NCBI GenBank assembly: GCA_963847945.1
Contig: CAWKBX010000009.1
Location: 583,915-647,914 of the forward strand
Direction of reading: 5' to 3'
Length of the DNA: 64,000 nt
Source of the DNA: an uncultured Actinomycetes bacterium
GTDB lineage: Bacteria; Actinomycetota; Acidimicrobiia; Acidimicrobiales; Ilumatobacteraceae
Shown here: piece by piece, positions 4,070 through 12,311 of the stretch
Layout: each line of letters opens with the position of its first letter
How positions within the stretch are numbered: the first letter of the stretch is position 1
The notes under the pieces: generated by a model
The model's input: the letters and a program-made list of their open reading frames with translations, nothing else
Told to the model about the DNA's origin: nothing
Database searches by the model: none
Translations under genes and position numbers: made by a program

Positions 4070-4860
4070 CGTCCTACATAGCGGGCTGGCCGCTTCTCGA
4101 GGAAGGCCCGGGCGCCCTCGCGGTGATCTTCGGTTTGGAACAGCTCGCCCAACGTCGACGACACCCACACACCCAGCGACTTCCACTCCGGGTCGACGGC
4201 TCGCCGCAGTCCGGCCTTCAGTCGTTGCACCGCCAGCGGGGGATTCGAGGCGATCCGCCCCGCCACGGCCATCGCCGTGTCGAGGAGATCGTCATGCAGC
4301 ACGACTCGCGACACCAGACCCATCGACAAGGCGGTCGCGGCGTCGATCACCTCACCGGTGAACAGCAGCTCGGCGGCGCGCTCGCGCCCGACTAGTTGAG
4401 CAAGTCGCCCCAGCCCGGCAACATCGGACACCAGCCCGCGGAGCACGAACAATTCTCCAAACCTCGCCCGTTCACTGGCGACGCGGATGTCGGCCATCAA
4501 GGCCAGTTCCATACCCCAACCCACCGCGGAGCCATTGACGGCGGCGATGATCGGCACATCAGTGTGCAACAGCGCGTCGGCCGCCGGAGTCAGCTGCGGG
4601 TGGCGACCGGCGGTCGACATCACCGGGGTGTGCCCCTCGGCCCCGCCACCCATCACTTGGCGGACGTCGTCCCCTGAACAGAACGCCGGATCAACACCGG
4701 TGATGATCAAGCATCGAGCCGTGGTGGTTCGCACCAATCGCTCAAGTTCCGCATACATCGCGTGAGTGAGCGCGTTGCGGGTGGCCGGACGGTTGAGAGT
4801 GATCAGCCCGACGTGCTCACGCTCGTCGTAGACCACGTCGTCGACGGCCGATTTGCTCAA
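4066..4860 (-). CDS. enoyl-CoA hydratase/crotonase family protein
   Basis: Crotonase motifs ITLNRPATRNAL, AFCSGDDV, AAVNGSAVGWGMELALMADIRVA; a TTG start overlaps the mreB stop (TTGA). Confidence 0.8.
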   Translation of the reverse strand: MSKSAVDDVVYDEREHVGLITLNRPATRNALTHAMYAELERLVRTTTARCLIITGVDPAFCSGDDVRQVMGGGAEGHTPVMSTAGRHPQLTPAADALLHTDVPIIAAVNGSAVGWGMELALMADIRVASERARFGELFVLRGLVSDVAGLGRLAQLVGRERAAELLFTGEVIDAATALSMGLVSRVVLHDDLLDTAMAVAGRIASNPPLAVQRLKAGLRRAVDPEWKSLGVWVSSTLGELFQTEDHREGARAFLEKRPARYVGR

Positions 4861-5861
4861 CGGCGGGCTCCCATGAACATCGTCTTGAGCGCCTCGTAGT
4901 GCTCGATGCAATGGCCGGCGCCGAGGACGACGGCTTCGAGCGGCATCGGCGACATATGTACCGGCACCTGGGTTTCCCGCTCGATTCGATGGGCCAAACC
5001 GCGCAGCATGCCGCCACCCCCGCACAGGAACATGCCGCGGATCAAGAAGTCCTGCGCCAATTCCGGCGGAGCTTTCGACAGACAGCGGATCACCGATTGG
5101 ACGATCGCCGCAACCACGTCTTCGATTGCCCCGCGAATCTCTTGGGGGTTGAGGGTCACCGTCTTGGGTAGGCCGCTCATCAGGTCGCGACCGCGAACCT
5201 CGGCATGGGACTCGTCGGGCGTGGGGTCGGCCGAGCCAATGGCGACCTTGATCTCCTCCGCCGTGCGCTCGCCAATGGCGATGCCGTGCTCCCGGCGCAC
5301 ATAGCTCTGGATCGCGTTGTCGATGTCGAACGACCCGACCCGCACCGCTTCCAACGCCACGATGCCGCCAAGGGAGATGACCGCAGTCTCAGATGTGCCG
5401 CCGCCGATATCGATGACCATGTTTCCGACCGGTTCGTCGATCGGCAGGTCGGCCCCGATGGCCGCGGCCATCGGCTGCTCGATCAACTGAGCATCGGCCG
5501 CGCCGGCCCGTCGGGCGGCATCGGTCACCGCGCGTCGCTCGACCTCGGTGATCGCCGAGGGCACGCAGATGACCACCTTCGGCCGGTTGAAACGGGTCAC
5601 ACCGACCCGCTGTAACAGCAGGCGGATCATTTTCTCGGTGATCTGGAAGTCGGTGATCGCGCCACCGCGCAGCGGCCGGACGGCGACGATGTAGCCGGGC
5701 GTACGACCGATCATCTGCCACGCTTCGCGACCGGTAGCAAGCACCTCGCCGGTCTGACGGTTGAGGGCGATGACCGAGGGCTCGTTGAGTACGATGCCCC
5801 GACCCTTCATGTAGACCAGGGTGTTGGCGGTGCCGAGATCGATGGCGAGGTCGCGCGCCAC
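4857..5861 (-). CDS. mreB: rod shape-determining protein MreB (actin-like ATPase)
   Basis: Canonical MreB sequence along the whole protein: DLGTANTLVY..., NEPSVIA, DIGGGTSE, LCGGGGMLRGL. Confidence 0.9.
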   Translation of the reverse strand: MARDLAIDLGTANTLVYMKGRGIVLNEPSVIALNRQTGEVLATGREAWQMIGRTPGYIVAVRPLRGGAITDFQITEKMIRLLLQRVGVTRFNRPKVVICVPSAITEVERRAVTDAARRAGAADAQLIEQPMAAAIGADLPIDEPVGNMVIDIGGGTSETAVISLGGIVALEAVRVGSFDIDNAIQSYVRREHGIAIGERTAEEIKVAIGSADPTPDESHAEVRGRDLMSGLPKTVTLNPQEIRGAIEDVVAAIVQSVIRCLSKAPPELAQDFLIRGMFLCGGGGMLRGLAHRIERETQVPVHMSPMPLEAVVLGAGHCIEHYEALKTMFMGARR

Positions 5862-5863
5862 GA

Positions 5864-6070
5864 CTACTCCTCACGCCAATCGTCATCGCGACGGGCGTCC
5901 TGCACCCGGTCGATGACCTCGCGGCGGGCGTCGGACGACAACGCGTCCATGTGCGCCCGGTGGCGCGACAACCCGTCGATCGGGCCACCACCCGATCGGC
6001 TGCGGAGCACCACCAGGGCAATGCCCGCGGCCACGATCAGCAGCCCCAGAATGATTGCTACGGTCTTCAT
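5864..6070 (-). CDS. small single-pass membrane protein
   Basis: MKTVAIILGLLIVAAGIALVVL transmembrane segment followed by a charged tail; 4-nt overlap with moaE upstream and adjacent to mreB downstream. Confidence 0.4.
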   Translation of the reverse strand: MKTVAIILGLLIVAAGIALVVLRSRSGGGPIDGLSRHRAHMDALSSDARREVIDRVQDARRDDDWREE

Positions 6071-6555
6071 CGGTTCCCGTCCACTGCCCCCGGCACGGTG
6101 ATGTGCTGGGCGCCCAGCGCCCAATCGGCACCAGCGTTCCACACCTCGTGCTTCCAGATCGGGACGCTCGCCTTCAGGGCATCGATACCGAACCGGGCCG
6201 CCTCGAATGCTTCGGGGCGATGCGGCGACGATACGACGACGATGACCGACGACTCCCCCAGCCCCAGCTGCCCTAAACGATGCAACAACACCACCCGACC
6301 CACCGTCGGCCACCGGGTGCGAATCTCGTCGTCGATCTGCATCAACCGCGGCAACGCCTGTTCTTCGTATGCCTCATAGGTGAGGTGGGAAACGTCGTCG
6401 CGACCATCAGCATGGTCACGCACCGTGCCCGAGAAGAGCACGACTGCTCCACACGACGGCTTCACTGCCCACTCATAGGCGGTGCCCACCGGAAGTTCAA
6501 GATCGGTCAGCGCGATCCACGTCTCGCCGTCGGGGGGTACCAGCACGCTGCGCAT
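6067..6555 (-). CDS. moaE: molybdopterin synthase catalytic subunit MoaE
   Basis: MoaE-like sequence (~160 aa, VLFSGTVRDH..., HRLGQLGLGESSVIVVVSSPHR). Confidence 0.7.
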   Translation of the reverse strand: MRSVLVPPDGETWIALTDLELPVGTAYEWAVKPSCGAVVLFSGTVRDHADGRDDVSHLTYEAYEEQALPRLMQIDDEIRTRWPTVGRVVLLHRLGQLGLGESSVIVVVSSPHRPEAFEAARFGIDALKASVPIWKHEVWNAGADWALGAQHITVPGAVDGNR

Positions 6556-7915: not shown

Positions 7916-8905
7916 CTAGCGACGCGCTCGACGAGCGACCCTGACGACACCCAATGCGACGGCCACGACGCCGCCGACCATGGCGCCGAGGGCCAACTCC
8001 TGCTTGCGCTGCGGGGTCAACATCGTCCACCACCGGGCCTCGGTGCCCTCGACGTAGGCCTGCTCGTTGGTCACGGTCGGCCGCCATCCAGCCGCCTTCA
8101 AGCGGTCGTTGGCGACGAGCCACGGGTGTTGGGCGAACGGCCAGAGTCCGGGTGGAATCGGCCCGCGTTGAAACCGCCAGCGGACGTCGACCGCCGCTTC
8201 GATCAGCCACGCCGGCAGCCGGATCCGCGGGGGCGTTCCCGCCAGCGCTCGCACGGTCTCACCGGCCACCCAACCATCAGGAGCCACATTGAACACCCCG
8301 TCAAGGTGCTGGTCATGGCCCAGAACGACGGCGGAGGCCAGATCGTCGAAATGCAGGAACTGGGCCGGTGGATCCTCCTCGTCGAGCCTCGCTCCGATCC
8401 CGGCGGCCAGGGCGCGGACCACGCTGCTCGTGCCGTCGGCGGCCAACGTCAGCACGGGGCGTAGCACCGTCACGGTTCGTCCCGGAACCGCCAGGCGCCA
8501 GGCATCGACCATCTGCTCGACCTGGGCGAGTTGATGGGCGAACCCGAAGCTGACGTCGGCCCGCAGCGGAGCCTCCTCGGTCAACGGAACCGGATTGTTC
8601 GGCCAGGCGCCATAGACCATGGCCGACGACAGCAGCACCATGTGGGTAACCCGGGCGGCAGCCGGATCGGCCAGCACCTGTTCGGTGACTCGCAGGGCGT
8701 TCGCGCCACGTTCGGCCAGCGTGTCGTGGTCGCCGGCGGTCAAATGAAGCAGGCAATCCGCGTCGACGTAGCGATCGGACCGTCGCGATCGATGCAGCCG
8801 CCGATCAGACTCGATGGTGACCACGTCGAGGTCGGCTCGATCGGCCAACAACTTCAGCACCCGGGTACCCAGCGCCCCCGCGGCTCCGGTCACGAGCGTG
8901 GTCAC
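7916..8905 (-). CDS. NAD-dependent epimerase/dehydratase family protein
   Basis: Rossmann motif VTTLVTGAAGALG; the GTG start at 8905 lies 20-25 nt downstream of the intron 3' end. The longer ORF reaching 9142 runs through intron RNA. Confidence 0.75.
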   Translation of the reverse strand: MTTLVTGAAGALGTRVLKLLADRADLDVVTIESDRRLHRSRRSDRYVDADCLLHLTAGDHDTLAERGANALRVTEQVLADPAAARVTHMVLLSSAMVYGAWPNNPVPLTEEAPLRADVSFGFAHQLAQVEQMVDAWRLAVPGRTVTVLRPVLTLAADGTSSVVRALAAGIGARLDEEDPPAQFLHFDDLASAVVLGHDQHLDGVFNVAPDGWVAGETVRALAGTPPRIRLPAWLIEAAVDVRWRFQRGPIPPGLWPFAQHPWLVANDRLKAAGWRPTVTNEQAYVEGTEARWWTMLTPQRKQELALGAMVGGVVAVALGVVRVARRARR

Positions 8906-8977
8906 TGGTCCGCACTCCGGTTCATTGGTAGTCAGGGGCGCGGTGCTGTTGCCAGCCCGTTTCCCCATCCCCCTTTC

Positions 8978-9010
8978 AATCCGTGCGTGCGGTTTTCCCG
9001 CACACGGCTT
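8978..9010 (-). ncRNA. group II intron domain V (catalytic hairpin)
   Basis: The minus strand reads AAGCCGUGUGCGGGAAAACCGCACGCACGGAUU: an AGC triad, 2-nt bulge and GAAA-type loop, matching the DV consensus GAGCCGUAUGCG..CGCACGUACGGUUC. Confidence 0.7.
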
Positions 9011-9032
9011 ACCTTCGTGCTTCTGGACATTG

Positions 9033-10373
9033 TTACGCGGCCTTCGGGTAGCGGATGGTGCCCATGAGTTGATGCAGGCCCTGGTCATGGAACCAGGCGG
9101 GTGTCCAGCGGGCTGCTTGACCAGCACGTAGGTTGCGCCCACGCTTCTTGATCAACAACCGTTTCAGCCGCCACACGACATGGCGATCGAGCTGCACGAA
9201 CTTGTTGGCTGCGTTCCCAGTCCGAAAGTAGTTGCCCCATCCCCGAAGGAACAGGTTCAACTCGCCGATGACGACCGGCAGGTCAGCACCGACACGTTTC
9301 CGACCGGTCAGGTCCTTGATCCGTTGGCGTGCCCGTTTCATGCTCCGAGCCGATGGCCAGCGGTGCAGGTAGTAACGCACGATGCGTTGCTGCTCCCACA
9401 AGCGTCCCGACATCCGAGCCCGAAAATGGCAACCCAGGAAATCGAACCCTTCACACCCCTCCCGAAGATCGACCACACGGGTCTTGTCCGGGTGAAGTTC
9501 CAGACCGAGTTCACCCATCATCTCGACAGCGAGACGATGCGCGTGTTCGGCCTGATCCCGGGTCTCACAGAGCACCACGAAGTCATCCGCATAACGGACA
9601 AGCTTCCCGGTTCCATGCTCGGCCCAAGCGTGATCAAACGCATCCAAGAAGATGTTGGCCAACAACGGTGAGATCACCCCACCCTGGGGGGTGCCCGTGA
9701 CCGTCGTCTGGTGCACCCCATCGACCAACACCCCAGCCGTCAACCACTGACGGACCAGTTTGAGCACCCGACGATCCGACACCCGACGCTCAACAAGCGC
9801 CATCAGCCGAACATGATCGATCGACCCGAAGAAATCTCGGATATCGGCCTCGAAGACGAACTGGTCGCCTTTCGGGAACGCCACCCTGATCGCTTCCATC
9901 GCATCAGTGGCGGAACGTTTCGGGCGGAACCCGAAACTACACGCCAAGAAATCGGCCTCGAACAACGGCTCAAGAACGATCTTGACGGCCTGCTGCGCCA
10001 CCCGATCACGAACAGTCGGGATACCCAACGGCCGTTTACGGCCATCCGGCTTCGGTATCTCCACCCGCCGCACCGGCAACGGGTAATACCTCCCTGCACG
10101 AAGATCCCCAGCCAACTCATCCAACATTCGATGAACCCCGGAATCCTCAACCGCTGCCACCGTGACCTTGTCGATCCCGGCAGCACCACGATTCTCACGC
10201 ACACGTTCCCACGCCTCCCACAAGACGTCACTCCTGTGAACACGGTCAAACAGGGCATGGAAACGCCTACCCTCAGACTGCTTGGCAGCAGCCCATAGCC
10301 GATTCTGAAGTTGTCGCACTTTCACCGGAGCCTTACGACCCCGAGGGTGGTTGGACCGGGCGGTCCCGGTCAT
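9033..10373 (-). CDS. group II intron-encoded reverse transcriptase/maturase
   Basis: RT motifs 0-7 (RPLGIPTVRDRVAQQA, FGFRP, GTPQGGVISPLLANIFL, YADDFVV) plus a maturase X domain; the start is taken at MTGTARSN. Confidence 0.9.
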   Translation of the reverse strand: MTGTARSNHPRGRKAPVKVRQLQNRLWAAAKQSEGRRFHALFDRVHRSDVLWEAWERVRENRGAAGIDKVTVAAVEDSGVHRMLDELAGDLRAGRYYPLPVRRVEIPKPDGRKRPLGIPTVRDRVAQQAVKIVLEPLFEADFLACSFGFRPKRSATDAMEAIRVAFPKGDQFVFEADIRDFFGSIDHVRLMALVERRVSDRRVLKLVRQWLTAGVLVDGVHQTTVTGTPQGGVISPLLANIFLDAFDHAWAEHGTGKLVRYADDFVVLCETRDQAEHAHRLAVEMMGELGLELHPDKTRVVDLREGCEGFDFLGCHFRARMSGRLWEQQRIVRYYLHRWPSARSMKRARQRIKDLTGRKRVGADLPVVIGELNLFLRGWGNYFRTGNAANKFVQLDRHVVWRLKRLLIKKRGRNLRAGQAARWTPAWFHDQGLHQLMGTIRYPKAA

Positions 10374-10943
10374 GCCCTCACGCTTACCCCCATAACCAGC
10401 ACGCCCGAAGCCGGGGCCCTTCCCTCCCGCCACGTTGTGTTGCATGGCGATCTGCGGTACTACGACCCCGTCGGACTCCCGCTGCGCTCCGGATGATTTC
10501 ACCACTGGCTTATACATCCGGTCTTTGCTGACAAGGCTGCGCAGACGGGCCTCTCCTGTTCCGAACCAAACCTTGCGTACGTGCCACTTCCCATACCCCG
10601 GAAGAACCCGCCAAGTGCATCTCCGACACGCACCCAACGGACATGGCCTTCACCGTGAAATGAGCGGCTCGGCTTCTTCGTTGTGGATCTGACGAGGCTG
10701 CAGAATTCGCTTGATGCTGCGGCCCGCACGCTTGCTCCCTCCCTACAGAGGCTTTCGACACCCCGCTCAGCCCGCGACCTCTCGATCACGAACCGGGGCC
10801 TGCTACCGGGCGCGTCGGCGCTTACCCGGACGGGACTCACACCCGCTGGTCTGGTCCAGCTTTCAGGACGCAACATTGGCTGATCCTACGACCCCTTCGC
10901 CGCGAGTCATCGGGTCGCCACGACCGGCTTTAGGCTGGGCGAT

Positions 10944-12311
10944 GTGAGTGACAACCCGGGCAATGACGAATCGGAGTTCGACGAGTCAGCCTTCGATGAA
11001 TCAACGTTCGATGAGTCCGCGTTCGAGGGCATCAACTTCGACGAGTCTGCGCCCGATGCGACGATCGATGACGCCAATCCGGCGGCGGCCGGCAACCCGT
11101 TCGGGGGTCTGCTCGGAGCCGGGGCCGGAGGGCCGGGTGGTGCGGGCGGCGGGAATCCGTTCGCCGGGATTCCGATGTTCTCTGAGATCGCCAAGATGAT
11201 GCAGACCCAGGGGCCACTCAACTGGGACATCGCCCGTCAGATGGCGATGTCGTCGGCCACCGGTGGCCAAGCCGAGGTCAATGTCGATCCGCTCGTGCGC
11301 ATCAGCTTCAACGACCTTGCCCGTATCGCCGACATGCACGTCCAGAACCTCACCGGGCTCGACACGACGGTCGGCGGTCGCAACATCGAGATCGCCACCA
11401 CCACCTCGGGCGGTTGGGCCCAACGCACCCTCGATGCCTACAAGCCATTGATGACCGAGTTGGCCACCTCACTCGGTCAGCGCGGACCGACCGGCGACGA
11501 TCCCGAAACCGGCGATCCGTTCGCGGCGATGCTCGCCGGCATCGGCCAGATGATGGGTCCGTCGATGCTCGGGATGGCCGTCGGTGGCATGGTCGGGCAA
11601 CTCGGGGCCCGGGCGTTCGGTCAATATGACCTGCCGATTCCTCGACCGCCGAGCCACGAGTTGCTCGTGGTGCCGGCAACGATCGACGCCTTCGCCAAAG
11701 CGTGGAGCCTCTCCGTCGATGAGCTGCGGCTGTGGGCCTGCCTGCAGGAGATCGCTACCCATGCCGTCCTCAATGTCTCGCACGTTCGTGCCGAGTTGGA
11801 GCGTCTGCTCCGTTCGCACGTTGCCGGGTTCCGGCCCGATGCCTCGGCGTTGATGGACAAGCTCGAGGGCCTTGAGTTCGGCGACGCCGACCCGGCAACG
11901 GCGTTGCAACGCACGCTCGGCGACCCCGAGGTGCTGCTCGGAGCGGTGCAGACGCCCGAACAACTCGCCCAACTCCCCCGCCTCGACGCGATCGTTGCCA
12001 CGATTATCGGCTATGTCGACCACGTTGTCGACCGGGCCGCGGGCATGTTGCTCGGTTCGCATCGCCAGATCGGCGAGGCCGTACGACGCCGGCGGGTGGA
12101 AAGCTCACCCGAGGACATTTTCGTGGAACGACTCCTCGGGCTGCGACTTTCGCGCCAGCAGGTGGAGCGGGGCCGCACCTTCGTCGACGGTGTGCTCGAA
12201 CGAGCCGGTGAGGACGGGCTCGCCCGATTGTTCGCTACCGCCGGCAACCTGCCGACCCCGGCCGAGATCGACGCCCCCGGGCTCTGGCTCGCCCGCCTCG
12301 ATATCGGCTGA
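10944..12311 (+). CDS. DUF2342/zincin-like metallopeptidase family protein with an acidic repeat N-terminus; HExxH is replaced by QExxH
   Basis: Typical family architecture, length and GTG start. The expected zinc motif reads LQEIATHAV, with the first His encoded as Gln (CAG). Confidence 0.65.
   Translation: MSDNPGNDESEFDESAFDESTFDESAFEGINFDESAPDATIDDANPAAAGNPFGGLLGAGAGGPGGAGGGNPFAGIPMFSEIAKMMQTQGPLNWDIARQMAMSSATGGQAEVNVDPLVRISFNDLARIADMHVQNLTGLDTTVGGRNIEIATTTSGGWAQRTLDAYKPLMTELATSLGQRGPTGDDPETGDPFAAMLAGIGQMMGPSMLGMAVGGMVGQLGARAFGQYDLPIPRPPSHELLVVPATIDAFAKAWSLSVDELRLWACLQEIATHAVLNVSHVRAELERLLRSHVAGFRPDASALMDKLEGLEFGDADPATALQRTLGDPEVLLGAVQTPEQLAQLPRLDAIVATIIGYVDHVVDRAAGMLLGSHRQIGEAVRRRRVESSPEDIFVERLLGLRLSRQQVERGRTFVDGVLERAGEDGLARLFATAGNLPTPAEIDAPGLWLARLDIG
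10968..11052 (+). repeat. 15-nt imperfect tandem repeat (x5) encoding (E/D)ES(A/T/E)FDES inside the CDS
   Basis: gagtc(a/c)gc(c/g)ttcga(t/c) units encoding ESEFDESAFDESTFDESAFEGINFDESAPD. Confidence 0.6.

Follow-up and report, generated by a model that had tools for sequence, protein, structure and literature searches.

What decides where a group II intron settles, when it is found in the short gap between two divergent genes, is the question raised by a locus of an uncultured member of the Ilumatobacteraceae (Acidimicrobiia; GenBank assembly GCA_963847945.1, contig CAWKBX010000009.1), of which a stretch of 64,000 nucleotides, here called the window, was analysed. A first-pass annotation had placed such an intron on the minus strand, upstream of an epimerase/dehydratase gene, in the same orientation and between divergent genes, and this holds. 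It had described the site as lying in the 5′ leader of that gene, which is right in that the intron is upstream of the gene but understates the position: the intron stands exactly after an ATG located 6 nt past a hexamer that resembles a -10 promoter element. With a probability of roughly 0.8, we read the element as an intact, probably mobile, endonuclease-less intron of IIB-like RNA type, inserted on the sense strand after the ATG that lies 6 nt past the TAGGAT of the epimerase, and belonging to a clade whose DNA target, TA-NNNT-N(5-6)-(C)RTG-N, is the signature of a leaderless gene start.

The ends of the intron were established by comparison with the best 80 related loci, collected by a protein-guided scan with one genome per species (66-90% protein identity) and found in Acidimicrobiia, Mycobacteriales, Propionibacteriales, Pseudonocardiales and other taxa. 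The genes flanking these 80 introns are unrelated to each other, yet the limits of similarity are the same: with blastn, similarity to the window begins at 10876/10875 and stops at 8923/8922 in almost all of them. Junction alignments gave a 5′ pattern of ...TANNNT-N5/6-[A/G]TG directly followed by the intron start [T/G]TGCGTCC..., and a 3′ pattern in which the intron closes with ...CTGACTACCAATG and coding-looking sequence follows. Since an ATG flanks the intron on both sides, four registers are possible for the insertion point. Among otherwise identical copies of one genome the 5′ triplet is ATG, GTG or CTG while the 3′ triplet is constant, which assigns the A/G at -3 to the host and the A of the 3′ triplet to the intron. 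Covariation between exon-binding site 3 (EBS3) and its partner, intron-binding site 3 (IBS3), which is of the IIB type, puts the 3′ splice site after G8923 and, taken together with the intron-less relatives described below, delimits the element as follows.

8923..10873, minus strand: complete group II intron of 1951 nt, running 5′ UUGCGUCC ... CUGACUACCAAUG 3′, with limits from blastn, junction alignments, the intron-less loci L081-L086 and EBS3-IBS3 covariation

The boundaries proposed in the first-pass annotation needed correction. Its 5′ end, GUGUGAG at 10843, is an internal domain I motif (GGGUGnGAGUCCC), 30 nt away from the true end at 10873; its 3′ end at 8928, supposedly 20-25 nt from the epimerase GTG, is 5 nt off, as the intron ends at 8923, 17 nt upstream of that GTG; and the 5′ boundary is 70 nt, instead of about 100 nt, from the divergent gene, counted to its GTG at 10944.

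What the site looked like before insertion can be read from relatives that share the locus. Three features are needed here.

7916..8905, minus strand: gene of the NAD-dependent epimerase/dehydratase family (329 aa, GTG start, PF01370), the downstream host gene
10883..10888, minus strand: TAGGAT, a -10-like TANNNT hexamer 6 nt upstream of the ATG, kept in the intron-less relatives
8902..8922, minus strand: start of the 3′ exon, with IBS3 (A8922); it holds a 7-codon upstream open reading frame (ORF) from codon 2 through codon 7 and stop

Homologues of the epimerase with 83-93% identity occur in a shared gene order (a Zincin_2 gene on the opposite strand, then epimerase, PDZ protease, MoaE and MreB) and use the position of GTG 8905 as their start. 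In the syntenic relatives L081-L086 the divergent genes are separated by 55-91 bp that contain no intron. The closest of them, L081-L083, whose epimerase is 93% identical, have a single ATG in the sequence GTCGTAGGCTCGGCCCTATGACCCGGAGTGCGGACCAGTGACC / GTCGTAGGCTCGGCCCTATGACCCGGAGTGCGGACCAgtgacc, and the window minus its intron reads GTCGTAGGATCAGCCAATG joined to AACCGGAGTGCGGACCAGTGACC; an empty site therefore has one ATG and a filled site has the order ATG-intron-ATG. In the 70-nt gap of the window (10943 to 10874), the minus strand has no TANNNT other than TAGGAT, and no -10 box is present ahead of the 3′-terminal ATG. A scan for E. coli-type promoters found nothing, which is uninformative here, as mycobacterial promoters lack a conserved -35 element (PMC3898074).

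The ORF interrupted in the window is not the epimerase, which retains its own GTG, but a 7-codon upstream ORF, MNRSADQ*, the TGA of which overlaps the epimerase GTG (GTGA). This short ORF is uninterrupted in L081-L083, reading MTRSADQ* in L081, and a GGAG is found 9 nt upstream of GTG 8905. L084-L086 are more distant, and there it is the epimerase that begins with TAGGCT-N6/7-ATGACCACGCTGGTG, its ATG being 6-7 nt past the TANNNT. In the lineage of the window, an ancestral leaderless-type ATG of the epimerase would appear to have been turned into the 7-codon upstream ORF after an insertion of ~14-21 nt, which would also have made the GGAG; the distant relatives retain the direct ATG start. The long ORF 7916..9142 had already been dismissed as an artefact of reading through domains V and VI, rightly so; GTG 8905 is the start of the epimerase, in the relatives too. 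On the other side of the gap, the divergent gene of the Zincin_2/DUF2342 family has a putative leaderless-type start of its own, TAGGCT-N7-GTG, at 10931..10946 on the plus strand, and both divergent genes thus appear to be leaderless-type, with -10 hexamers 43 bp apart.

The arrangement seen in the window recurs in the family. The positions that carry information across 71 distinct 5′ flanks are T-15, A-14, T-10, C-4, R-3, T-2 and G-1. Of 79 junction pairs, 66 have TANNNT 14-17 nt upstream of the intron, 6-7 nt before the ATG or GTG that abuts it. The 5′ flanks are without a hairpin and carry TANNNT-N6/7-RTG instead. The position directly after a start codon is apparently used by nearly the whole family, and downstream of it most loci have a long ORF in phase with the 3′ ATG, the other two frames being mostly short. 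All ten downstream ORFs tested (10/10) are real genes, with Pfam models that begin within the first ~10-50 residues; they include genes for a short-chain dehydrogenase/reductase (SDR), a ClpC/ClpB-like ATPase, DnaX, PurL, UvrB, a Ser/Thr kinase, SelO and a PLP-dependent decarboxylase, among others. The pattern is seen in a clade whose members share at least ~65% identity in their intron-encoded protein (IEP) and which spans Acidimicrobiia, Mycobacteriales and other Actinomycetota. An Embleya copy, 65% identical, is inserted at TACGGT-N6-ATG; in the nearest outgroups, with ~50% protein identity, the intron does not sit at a start codon and its 3′ end is different. TANNNT serves as the -10 motif of Mycobacterium tuberculosis, where it is centred 7-12 bp upstream of 73% of primary transcription starts and where leaderless mRNAs are plentiful (PMC3898074). 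With only 6-7 nt between TANNNT and the start codon, neither a leader nor a Shine-Dalgarno sequence fits, and for this reason we call such starts leaderless-type.

How the intron would recognise this signature is indicated by its pairings with the exons, which map to the following positions.

10874..10877, minus strand: IBS1 (AAUG), the last three bases of which are the ATG closing the 5′ exon
10659..10662, minus strand: EBS1 (CAUU), in the hairpin loop CUCAUUUCA, pairing with IBS1 AAUG
10685..10689, minus strand: EBS2 (GAUCC), pairing with IBS2 GGAUC (positions 3-6 of the hexamer and the base after it)
10593, minus strand: EBS3 (U), in the internal loop GGGGUA[U]GGG, pairing with IBS3 A8922

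All pairings of IBS1, IBS2 and IBS3 are Watson-Crick in the window. EBS3 and IBS3 are complementary in 61/61 copies, 60 of them by Watson-Crick pairs (G-C 33, A-U 17, C-G 7, U-A 3), with a mutual information (MI) of 1.46 bits. The EBS1 hairpin loop CUCAUNUCA spans 10664..10656 on the minus strand, 10659 being the fourth base of its CAU-N; exon position -4 is complementary to this fourth base in 95% of 61 copies (MI 0.75), and of the 33 representatives in alignment A1, three carry C as their third EBS1 base, each of them with a GTG exon. For EBS2, covariation links exon positions -9, -11 and -12 to 10689, 10687 and 10686, and 4.10 of 6 bases are paired on average, against 3.35 +/- 0.09 after permutation (maximum 3.62 in 2000 permutations, z ~8). 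IBS2 (10886..10882) overlaps TAGGAT, and the EBS2 A opposite the last T of the hexamer is invariant. No pairing was found that explains the conserved T-15 and A-14; this TA may be read by the protein. As a side observation, the EBS1 loop (10656..10664, minus strand) begins like the anticodon loop of initiator tRNA, CUCAUAA, and both must pair with AUG or GUG, a likeness that may be convergence or coincidence.

The same pairings settle the register. The window intron starts with UUGCG and ends with CCAAUG; positions 2-5 fit the consensus GUGYG, and the first and last bases differ from what is expected. The first nucleotide of group II introns is near-universally G. In the family, nucleotide 1 is U in 48/71 flanks and G in 23/71, and the last two nucleotides are UG, not AY. 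If the splice sites were moved by one base, giving an intron G...AU inserted between the T and the G of the ATG, the termini would be canonical. This register was rejected because perfect covariation with EBS3 is shown by the base that follows the 3′ ATG, not by the G within it, and it is also disfavoured by the ATG/GTG/CTG variation of the 5′ triplet. The identity of nucleotide 1 is itself correlated with the IBS3 base (MI 0.44), which could reflect shared ancestry.

Taken together, these data suggest a path by which the intron would enter and leave its sites. In the DNA target, EBS2 would read hexamer positions 3-6 and the next base, EBS1 (CAU-N) the start codon and the base preceding it, and EBS3 the first base of codon 2. 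The excised RNA-protein particle would then enter the sense strand by reverse splicing, with the G of the start codon on one side and codon 2 on the other, and, being endonuclease-less, would be copied from replication-derived primers, as for such introns generally. Transcription would begin at the A of the ATG, the intron lying at ~+4 of the epimerase transcript. As group II introns carry no promoter of their own (PMC12584367), the element would be transcribed from the host promoter with a 3-nt RNA 5′ exon, and splicing would rejoin AUG and codon 2. A transcription start at the A of the ATG implies that the RNA 5′ exon has three nucleotides and that IBS2 is absent from the RNA; EBS2-IBS2 pairing is dispensable for self-splicing in IIE and IIF introns (PMC3753933).

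The promoter-like hexamer could also be accounted for more simply. The element may be an ordinary site-specific intron, for which TANNNT would follow from EBS2 pairing and protein contacts alone, the targets being start codons behind conventional 5′ leaders or at operon junctions, with transcription beginning elsewhere. EBS2 does pair hexamer positions 3-6, and TAGG/TAGA hexamers resemble a weak Shine-Dalgarno sequence. T-15 is, moreover, a protein-contacted position in RmInt1, which counts in favour of this explanation. Against it, T-15, A-14 and T-10 do not change across the 30 or more variants of EBS2; the 6-7 nt to the purine of the start codon provide no space for a Shine-Dalgarno sequence or a leader; about one quarter of the hexamers begin with TAC, unlike a Shine-Dalgarno sequence; and no other TANNNT is available in the 70-nt gap of the window. 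We consider an ordinary intron of this kind unlikely, and favour the recognition of a leaderless-type gene start.

Several observations nevertheless weigh against the latter. Three nucleotides held by 3 base pairs would be an unusually small 5′ exon for a group II intron to splice, and because TANNNT is partly explained by EBS2 pairing, its likeness to a promoter could in principle be a by-product. We infer leaderless-type starts, at the locus and in the family, from the geometry of the sequence. Family counts inflate the number of independent events, as the sequences are kin. The window copy and L034, L048 and L071 have only 2-23 in-phase codons downstream; such short in-phase ORFs at some loci mean that what the intron recognises is a DNA signature and not a coding gene. 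The intron begins with U and ends with UG, in place of the canonical G...AY, and the window scores slightly below the gathering threshold of the Rfam model for domains V and VI.

Whether the element is an intron at all, and an intact one, is answered by its protein and its ribozyme domains.

9033..10373, minus strand: RT/maturase, that is, reverse transcriptase with maturase domain, of 446 aa plus stop (stop included; coding 10373..9036), with its ATG at 10373 and a YADD motif
10554..10868, minus strand, approximate limits: domain I, from RF02003, the RNAalifold consensus and column-to-window mapping
10406..10553, minus strand, approximate limits: domains II and III, from the RNAalifold consensus with compensatory pairs and the same mapping
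8978..9010, minus strand: domain V, with AGC triad, 2-nt AC bulge and GAAA-type loop
8927..8973, minus strand: domain VI, with helices 95-100% paired

The RT/maturase scores 416.6 bits on NCBIfam TIGR04416 (cut-off 300), matches Pfam RVT_1 and GIIM, and is flanked by ribozyme domains, as expected of a protein encoded in domain IV; the first-pass annotation was right about an intact RT/maturase in that place and about its RT and X domains, and one residue too long in counting 447 aa. Profile searches gave no match to an endonuclease or HNH domain, the protein stopping ~30 residues past GIIM. Its nearest solved structures in the Protein Data Bank (PDB) are class C group II RTs, and a protein search of plasmids found unclassified actinobacterial relatives at ~50% identity, such as Rh.sp.I1.

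A fold of domains I-III, the absence of which upstream of the ORF had been named beforehand as fatal to the intron, is present. Rfam RF02003 (group-II-D1D4-4) matches 10848..10712 on the minus strand with 91.6 bits against a gathering score of 49, and the RNAalifold consensus of the first ~495 nt of 33 diverse family members has 141 pairs, 66 of them (66/141) with compensatory changes. Domain I, of ~315 nt, includes a conserved hairpin GGGUGnGAGUCCC at 10846..10830 (minus strand), and a GGGUG motif lies 27 nt from the 5′ end of the intron. Rfam RF00029, the model for domains V and VI, matches 9012..8931 (minus strand) with 37.1 bits, its gathering score being 40. When a user-specified structure of both domains was checked on 31 sequences, 98.7% of cells were paired, against 31-44% with the partners slid by 1-3 columns, and 8 pairs were compensatory. 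The domain V string, already recognised in the first-pass annotation by its AGC triad, 2-nt bulge and GAAA loop, occurs a single time in the window, at 9010..8978, with 0 matches in 100 window shuffles, and its 12/12 pairs are kept in the 31 sequences, 3 of them with compensatory changes. In domain VI the bulged A8929 lies between conserved pairs, seven nucleotides from the 3′ splice site, as expected for a branch point (7-8 nt), and a G-C to C-G swap at columns 70/102 is compensatory. The G of an AGC triad is normally in a G-U wobble. In the 31/31 aligned members, however, the triad G of domain V (window 9008 / 8980, minus strand) is opposite an invariant A.

These domains bear on two further explanations. 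A free-standing RT that lacks a functional ribozyme, for instance a retron or defence RT, might be suspected from weak secondary matches to Drt and retron RT models, but these are far under their cut-offs while the group II model is above its own, and the covarying ribozyme domains on both sides of the ORF refute this explanation, for which we see practically no chance; the first-pass annotation had named it as the other finding that would be fatal to its reading. It is also very improbable that the element is a decaying, immobile remnant that lies upstream of the epimerase by chance. Such a remnant would agree with the presence of a single copy in the 64-kb window, with an RF00029 match under the gathering score and with U as first nucleotide; it is difficult to reconcile with a full-length ORF scoring 416.6 bits on TIGR04416, with the intactness of all domains and EBS/IBS pairings, and with the fact that U1 and the 3′ AUG are common to most family members, including genomes with 5-7 dispersed copies. 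No signs of decay were seen in the ribozyme. Mobility is judged by dispersed copies and empty sites, and both were found: several genomes carry multiple copies at different genes, with at least five listed for some, and precise empty sites are present in the syntenic relatives. A search for further copies, as had been suggested for defining the ends, found no second one in the 64-kb window; it was the 80 related loci in other genomes that fixed the ends and the IBS/EBS pairings. As judged from its sequence, the intron is intact and probably still mobile.

A further property of the intron concerns translation.

10499..10876, minus strand: read-in ORF of 125 codons, open from the 5′-exon ATG through domain I into domain II

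This frame is open for 93-128 codons in 63/63 copies (median 125), the other two frames closing after 3-23; its length in the window alone has p = 0.015 in window shuffles. A conserved protein was considered and rejected, as the peptide differs between sub-lineages, with a mid-frame shift, and it is openness rather than the peptide that is selected, if anything. That the frame beginning at the host AUG is kept open for ~125 codons suggests that translation is permitted to continue into the ribozyme. Introns more often hold an early in-frame stop, a statement made for group I introns (PMC3073962).

Some related loci have additional structures. In three unrelated genomes (L007 4369-6328, L011 ~4384-6340 and L076 ~4420-6378) the arrangement is twintron-like, a second, different group II intron of the Rfam D1D4-2 type, with its own domain V/VI match, lying inside domain V of the family intron or at the junction of its domains V and VI; L051 has a ~1.6 kb insertion at the same domain V/VI place, without an Rfam match. 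Orphan copies of the first 8-11 intron nucleotides (TTGCGTCCTGG, GTGCGTCCATG) are found beside -10-like hexamers at L064 1069-1079 and L090 990-1000. The one in L090 is directly upstream of a full intron. That in L064 comes after TAGAGT-N6-GTG and lies at a site of its own, ~1.4 kb upstream of a 5′-truncated copy. These orphan ends may be footprints of earlier insertion/deletion events.

If the clade does home to leaderless gene starts, landing on the first codon of such genes would be a further target strategy and would explain how a promoter-less retroelement secures its own transcription. The usual description of bacterial group II introns is that they stay out of housekeeping genes. Each new copy of the present family would come to lie 3 nt past the start of a host transcript, often that of an essential gene (dnaX, uvrB, purL, clpC-like). 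A 2015 review distinguished three target strategies in bacteria, namely specific homing sites, terminators and attC sites (PMC4424553). With an RNA 5′ exon of just pppAUG, the consequence would be either trinucleotide-exon splicing or gating of leaderless gene expression, which raises the questions of whether group II splicing can proceed with a 3-nt 5′ exon and whether splicing controls the translation of leaderless mRNAs in Actinomycetota, including mycobacteria. Retargetable tools for gene starts in high-GC actinobacteria would be a possible use. For the annotation of the window, the intron ends are corrected, a false 408-aa ORF is removed, and the epimerase and its divergent neighbour are both given putative leaderless-type starts.

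It remains to compare the element with known systems. In the literature searched, which did not include Michel et al. 2007, no targeting of start codons or leaderless genes is described for this lineage. Insertion within or next to initiation or termination codons is shared by a specialised IIB1 clade, which is proteobacterial, has a CL1 RT with endonuclease and always a 300-700 nt subdomain Ia near the 5′ end, and the characterised members of which, the groEL introns, home to one gene (PMC12584367). The family described here differs from it in having no 300-700 nt insertion (its ~315-nt domain I begins close to the 5′ end, as the position of GGGUG shows), no endonuclease domain and actinobacterial hosts, and in hitting many genes via a generic -10 and start-codon signature. 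RmInt1, an endonuclease-less, IIB-like intron of class D, is alike in reading its target through EBS1, EBS2 and EBS3, in having no endonuclease domain, in likely using reverse splicing followed by priming at replication forks, and in a conserved T-15 outside the pairings. T-15 is required by RmInt1. It is unlike the window intron in that its home is a single insertion-sequence element and its IBS1 and IBS2 are longer, and in that the nearest solved relatives of the window RT/maturase belong to class C.

Group IIC introns likewise use a generic gene-boundary signal, with a short IBS1 (3-4 nt) and a single-base IBS3, and their proteins are the nearest solved-structure relatives of the window RT; they insert after terminator hairpins or into attC, whereas the family inserts at a promoter and start-codon signature. 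The domain V triad of group IIC is CGC. Class C was rejected on account of the AGC triad of domain V, the presence of EBS2 and the type of target. The Rfam match of the window intron is to D1D4-4. Class g1 (Rh.js.I1, Sr.me.I2) is similar in being largely actinobacterial and in having an RT-X protein without endonuclease domain, but its introns have 2160-2210 nt, begin with GUGCGCC and occupy other kinds of sites, the window intron having 1951 nt; it was rejected because identity is only 40% (Rh.js.I1) and 37% (Sr.me.I2), against ~50% to the unclassified relatives. The comparison with class g1 was made by protein identity, length and features.

The closest catalogued element is My.va.I1 of Mycobacterium vanbaalenii (CP000511 2360134-2362120), listed as 'Unclassified', with 1987 nt and a 'putative non-coding sequence' as its site (Toro and Martinez-Abarca 2013, Table S2). 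It shares with the family an actinobacterial host and an endonuclease-less RT-X protein, and 1987 nt is the exact length of the mycobacterial family members. It is unlike the window copy in that the table lists a non-coding site, with no mention of a start codon or promoter, and in that the window copy has 1951 nt and is Acidimicrobiia-like. The clade probably includes My.va.I1, as judged from length, genus and domain content rather than from sequence comparison, and the window element is a new member of a catalogued, unclassified lineage. That the My.va.I1-like clade is an unrecognised specialised lineage, homing to the start codons of leaderless genes, is a tentative proposal, to which we give somewhat less than even odds.

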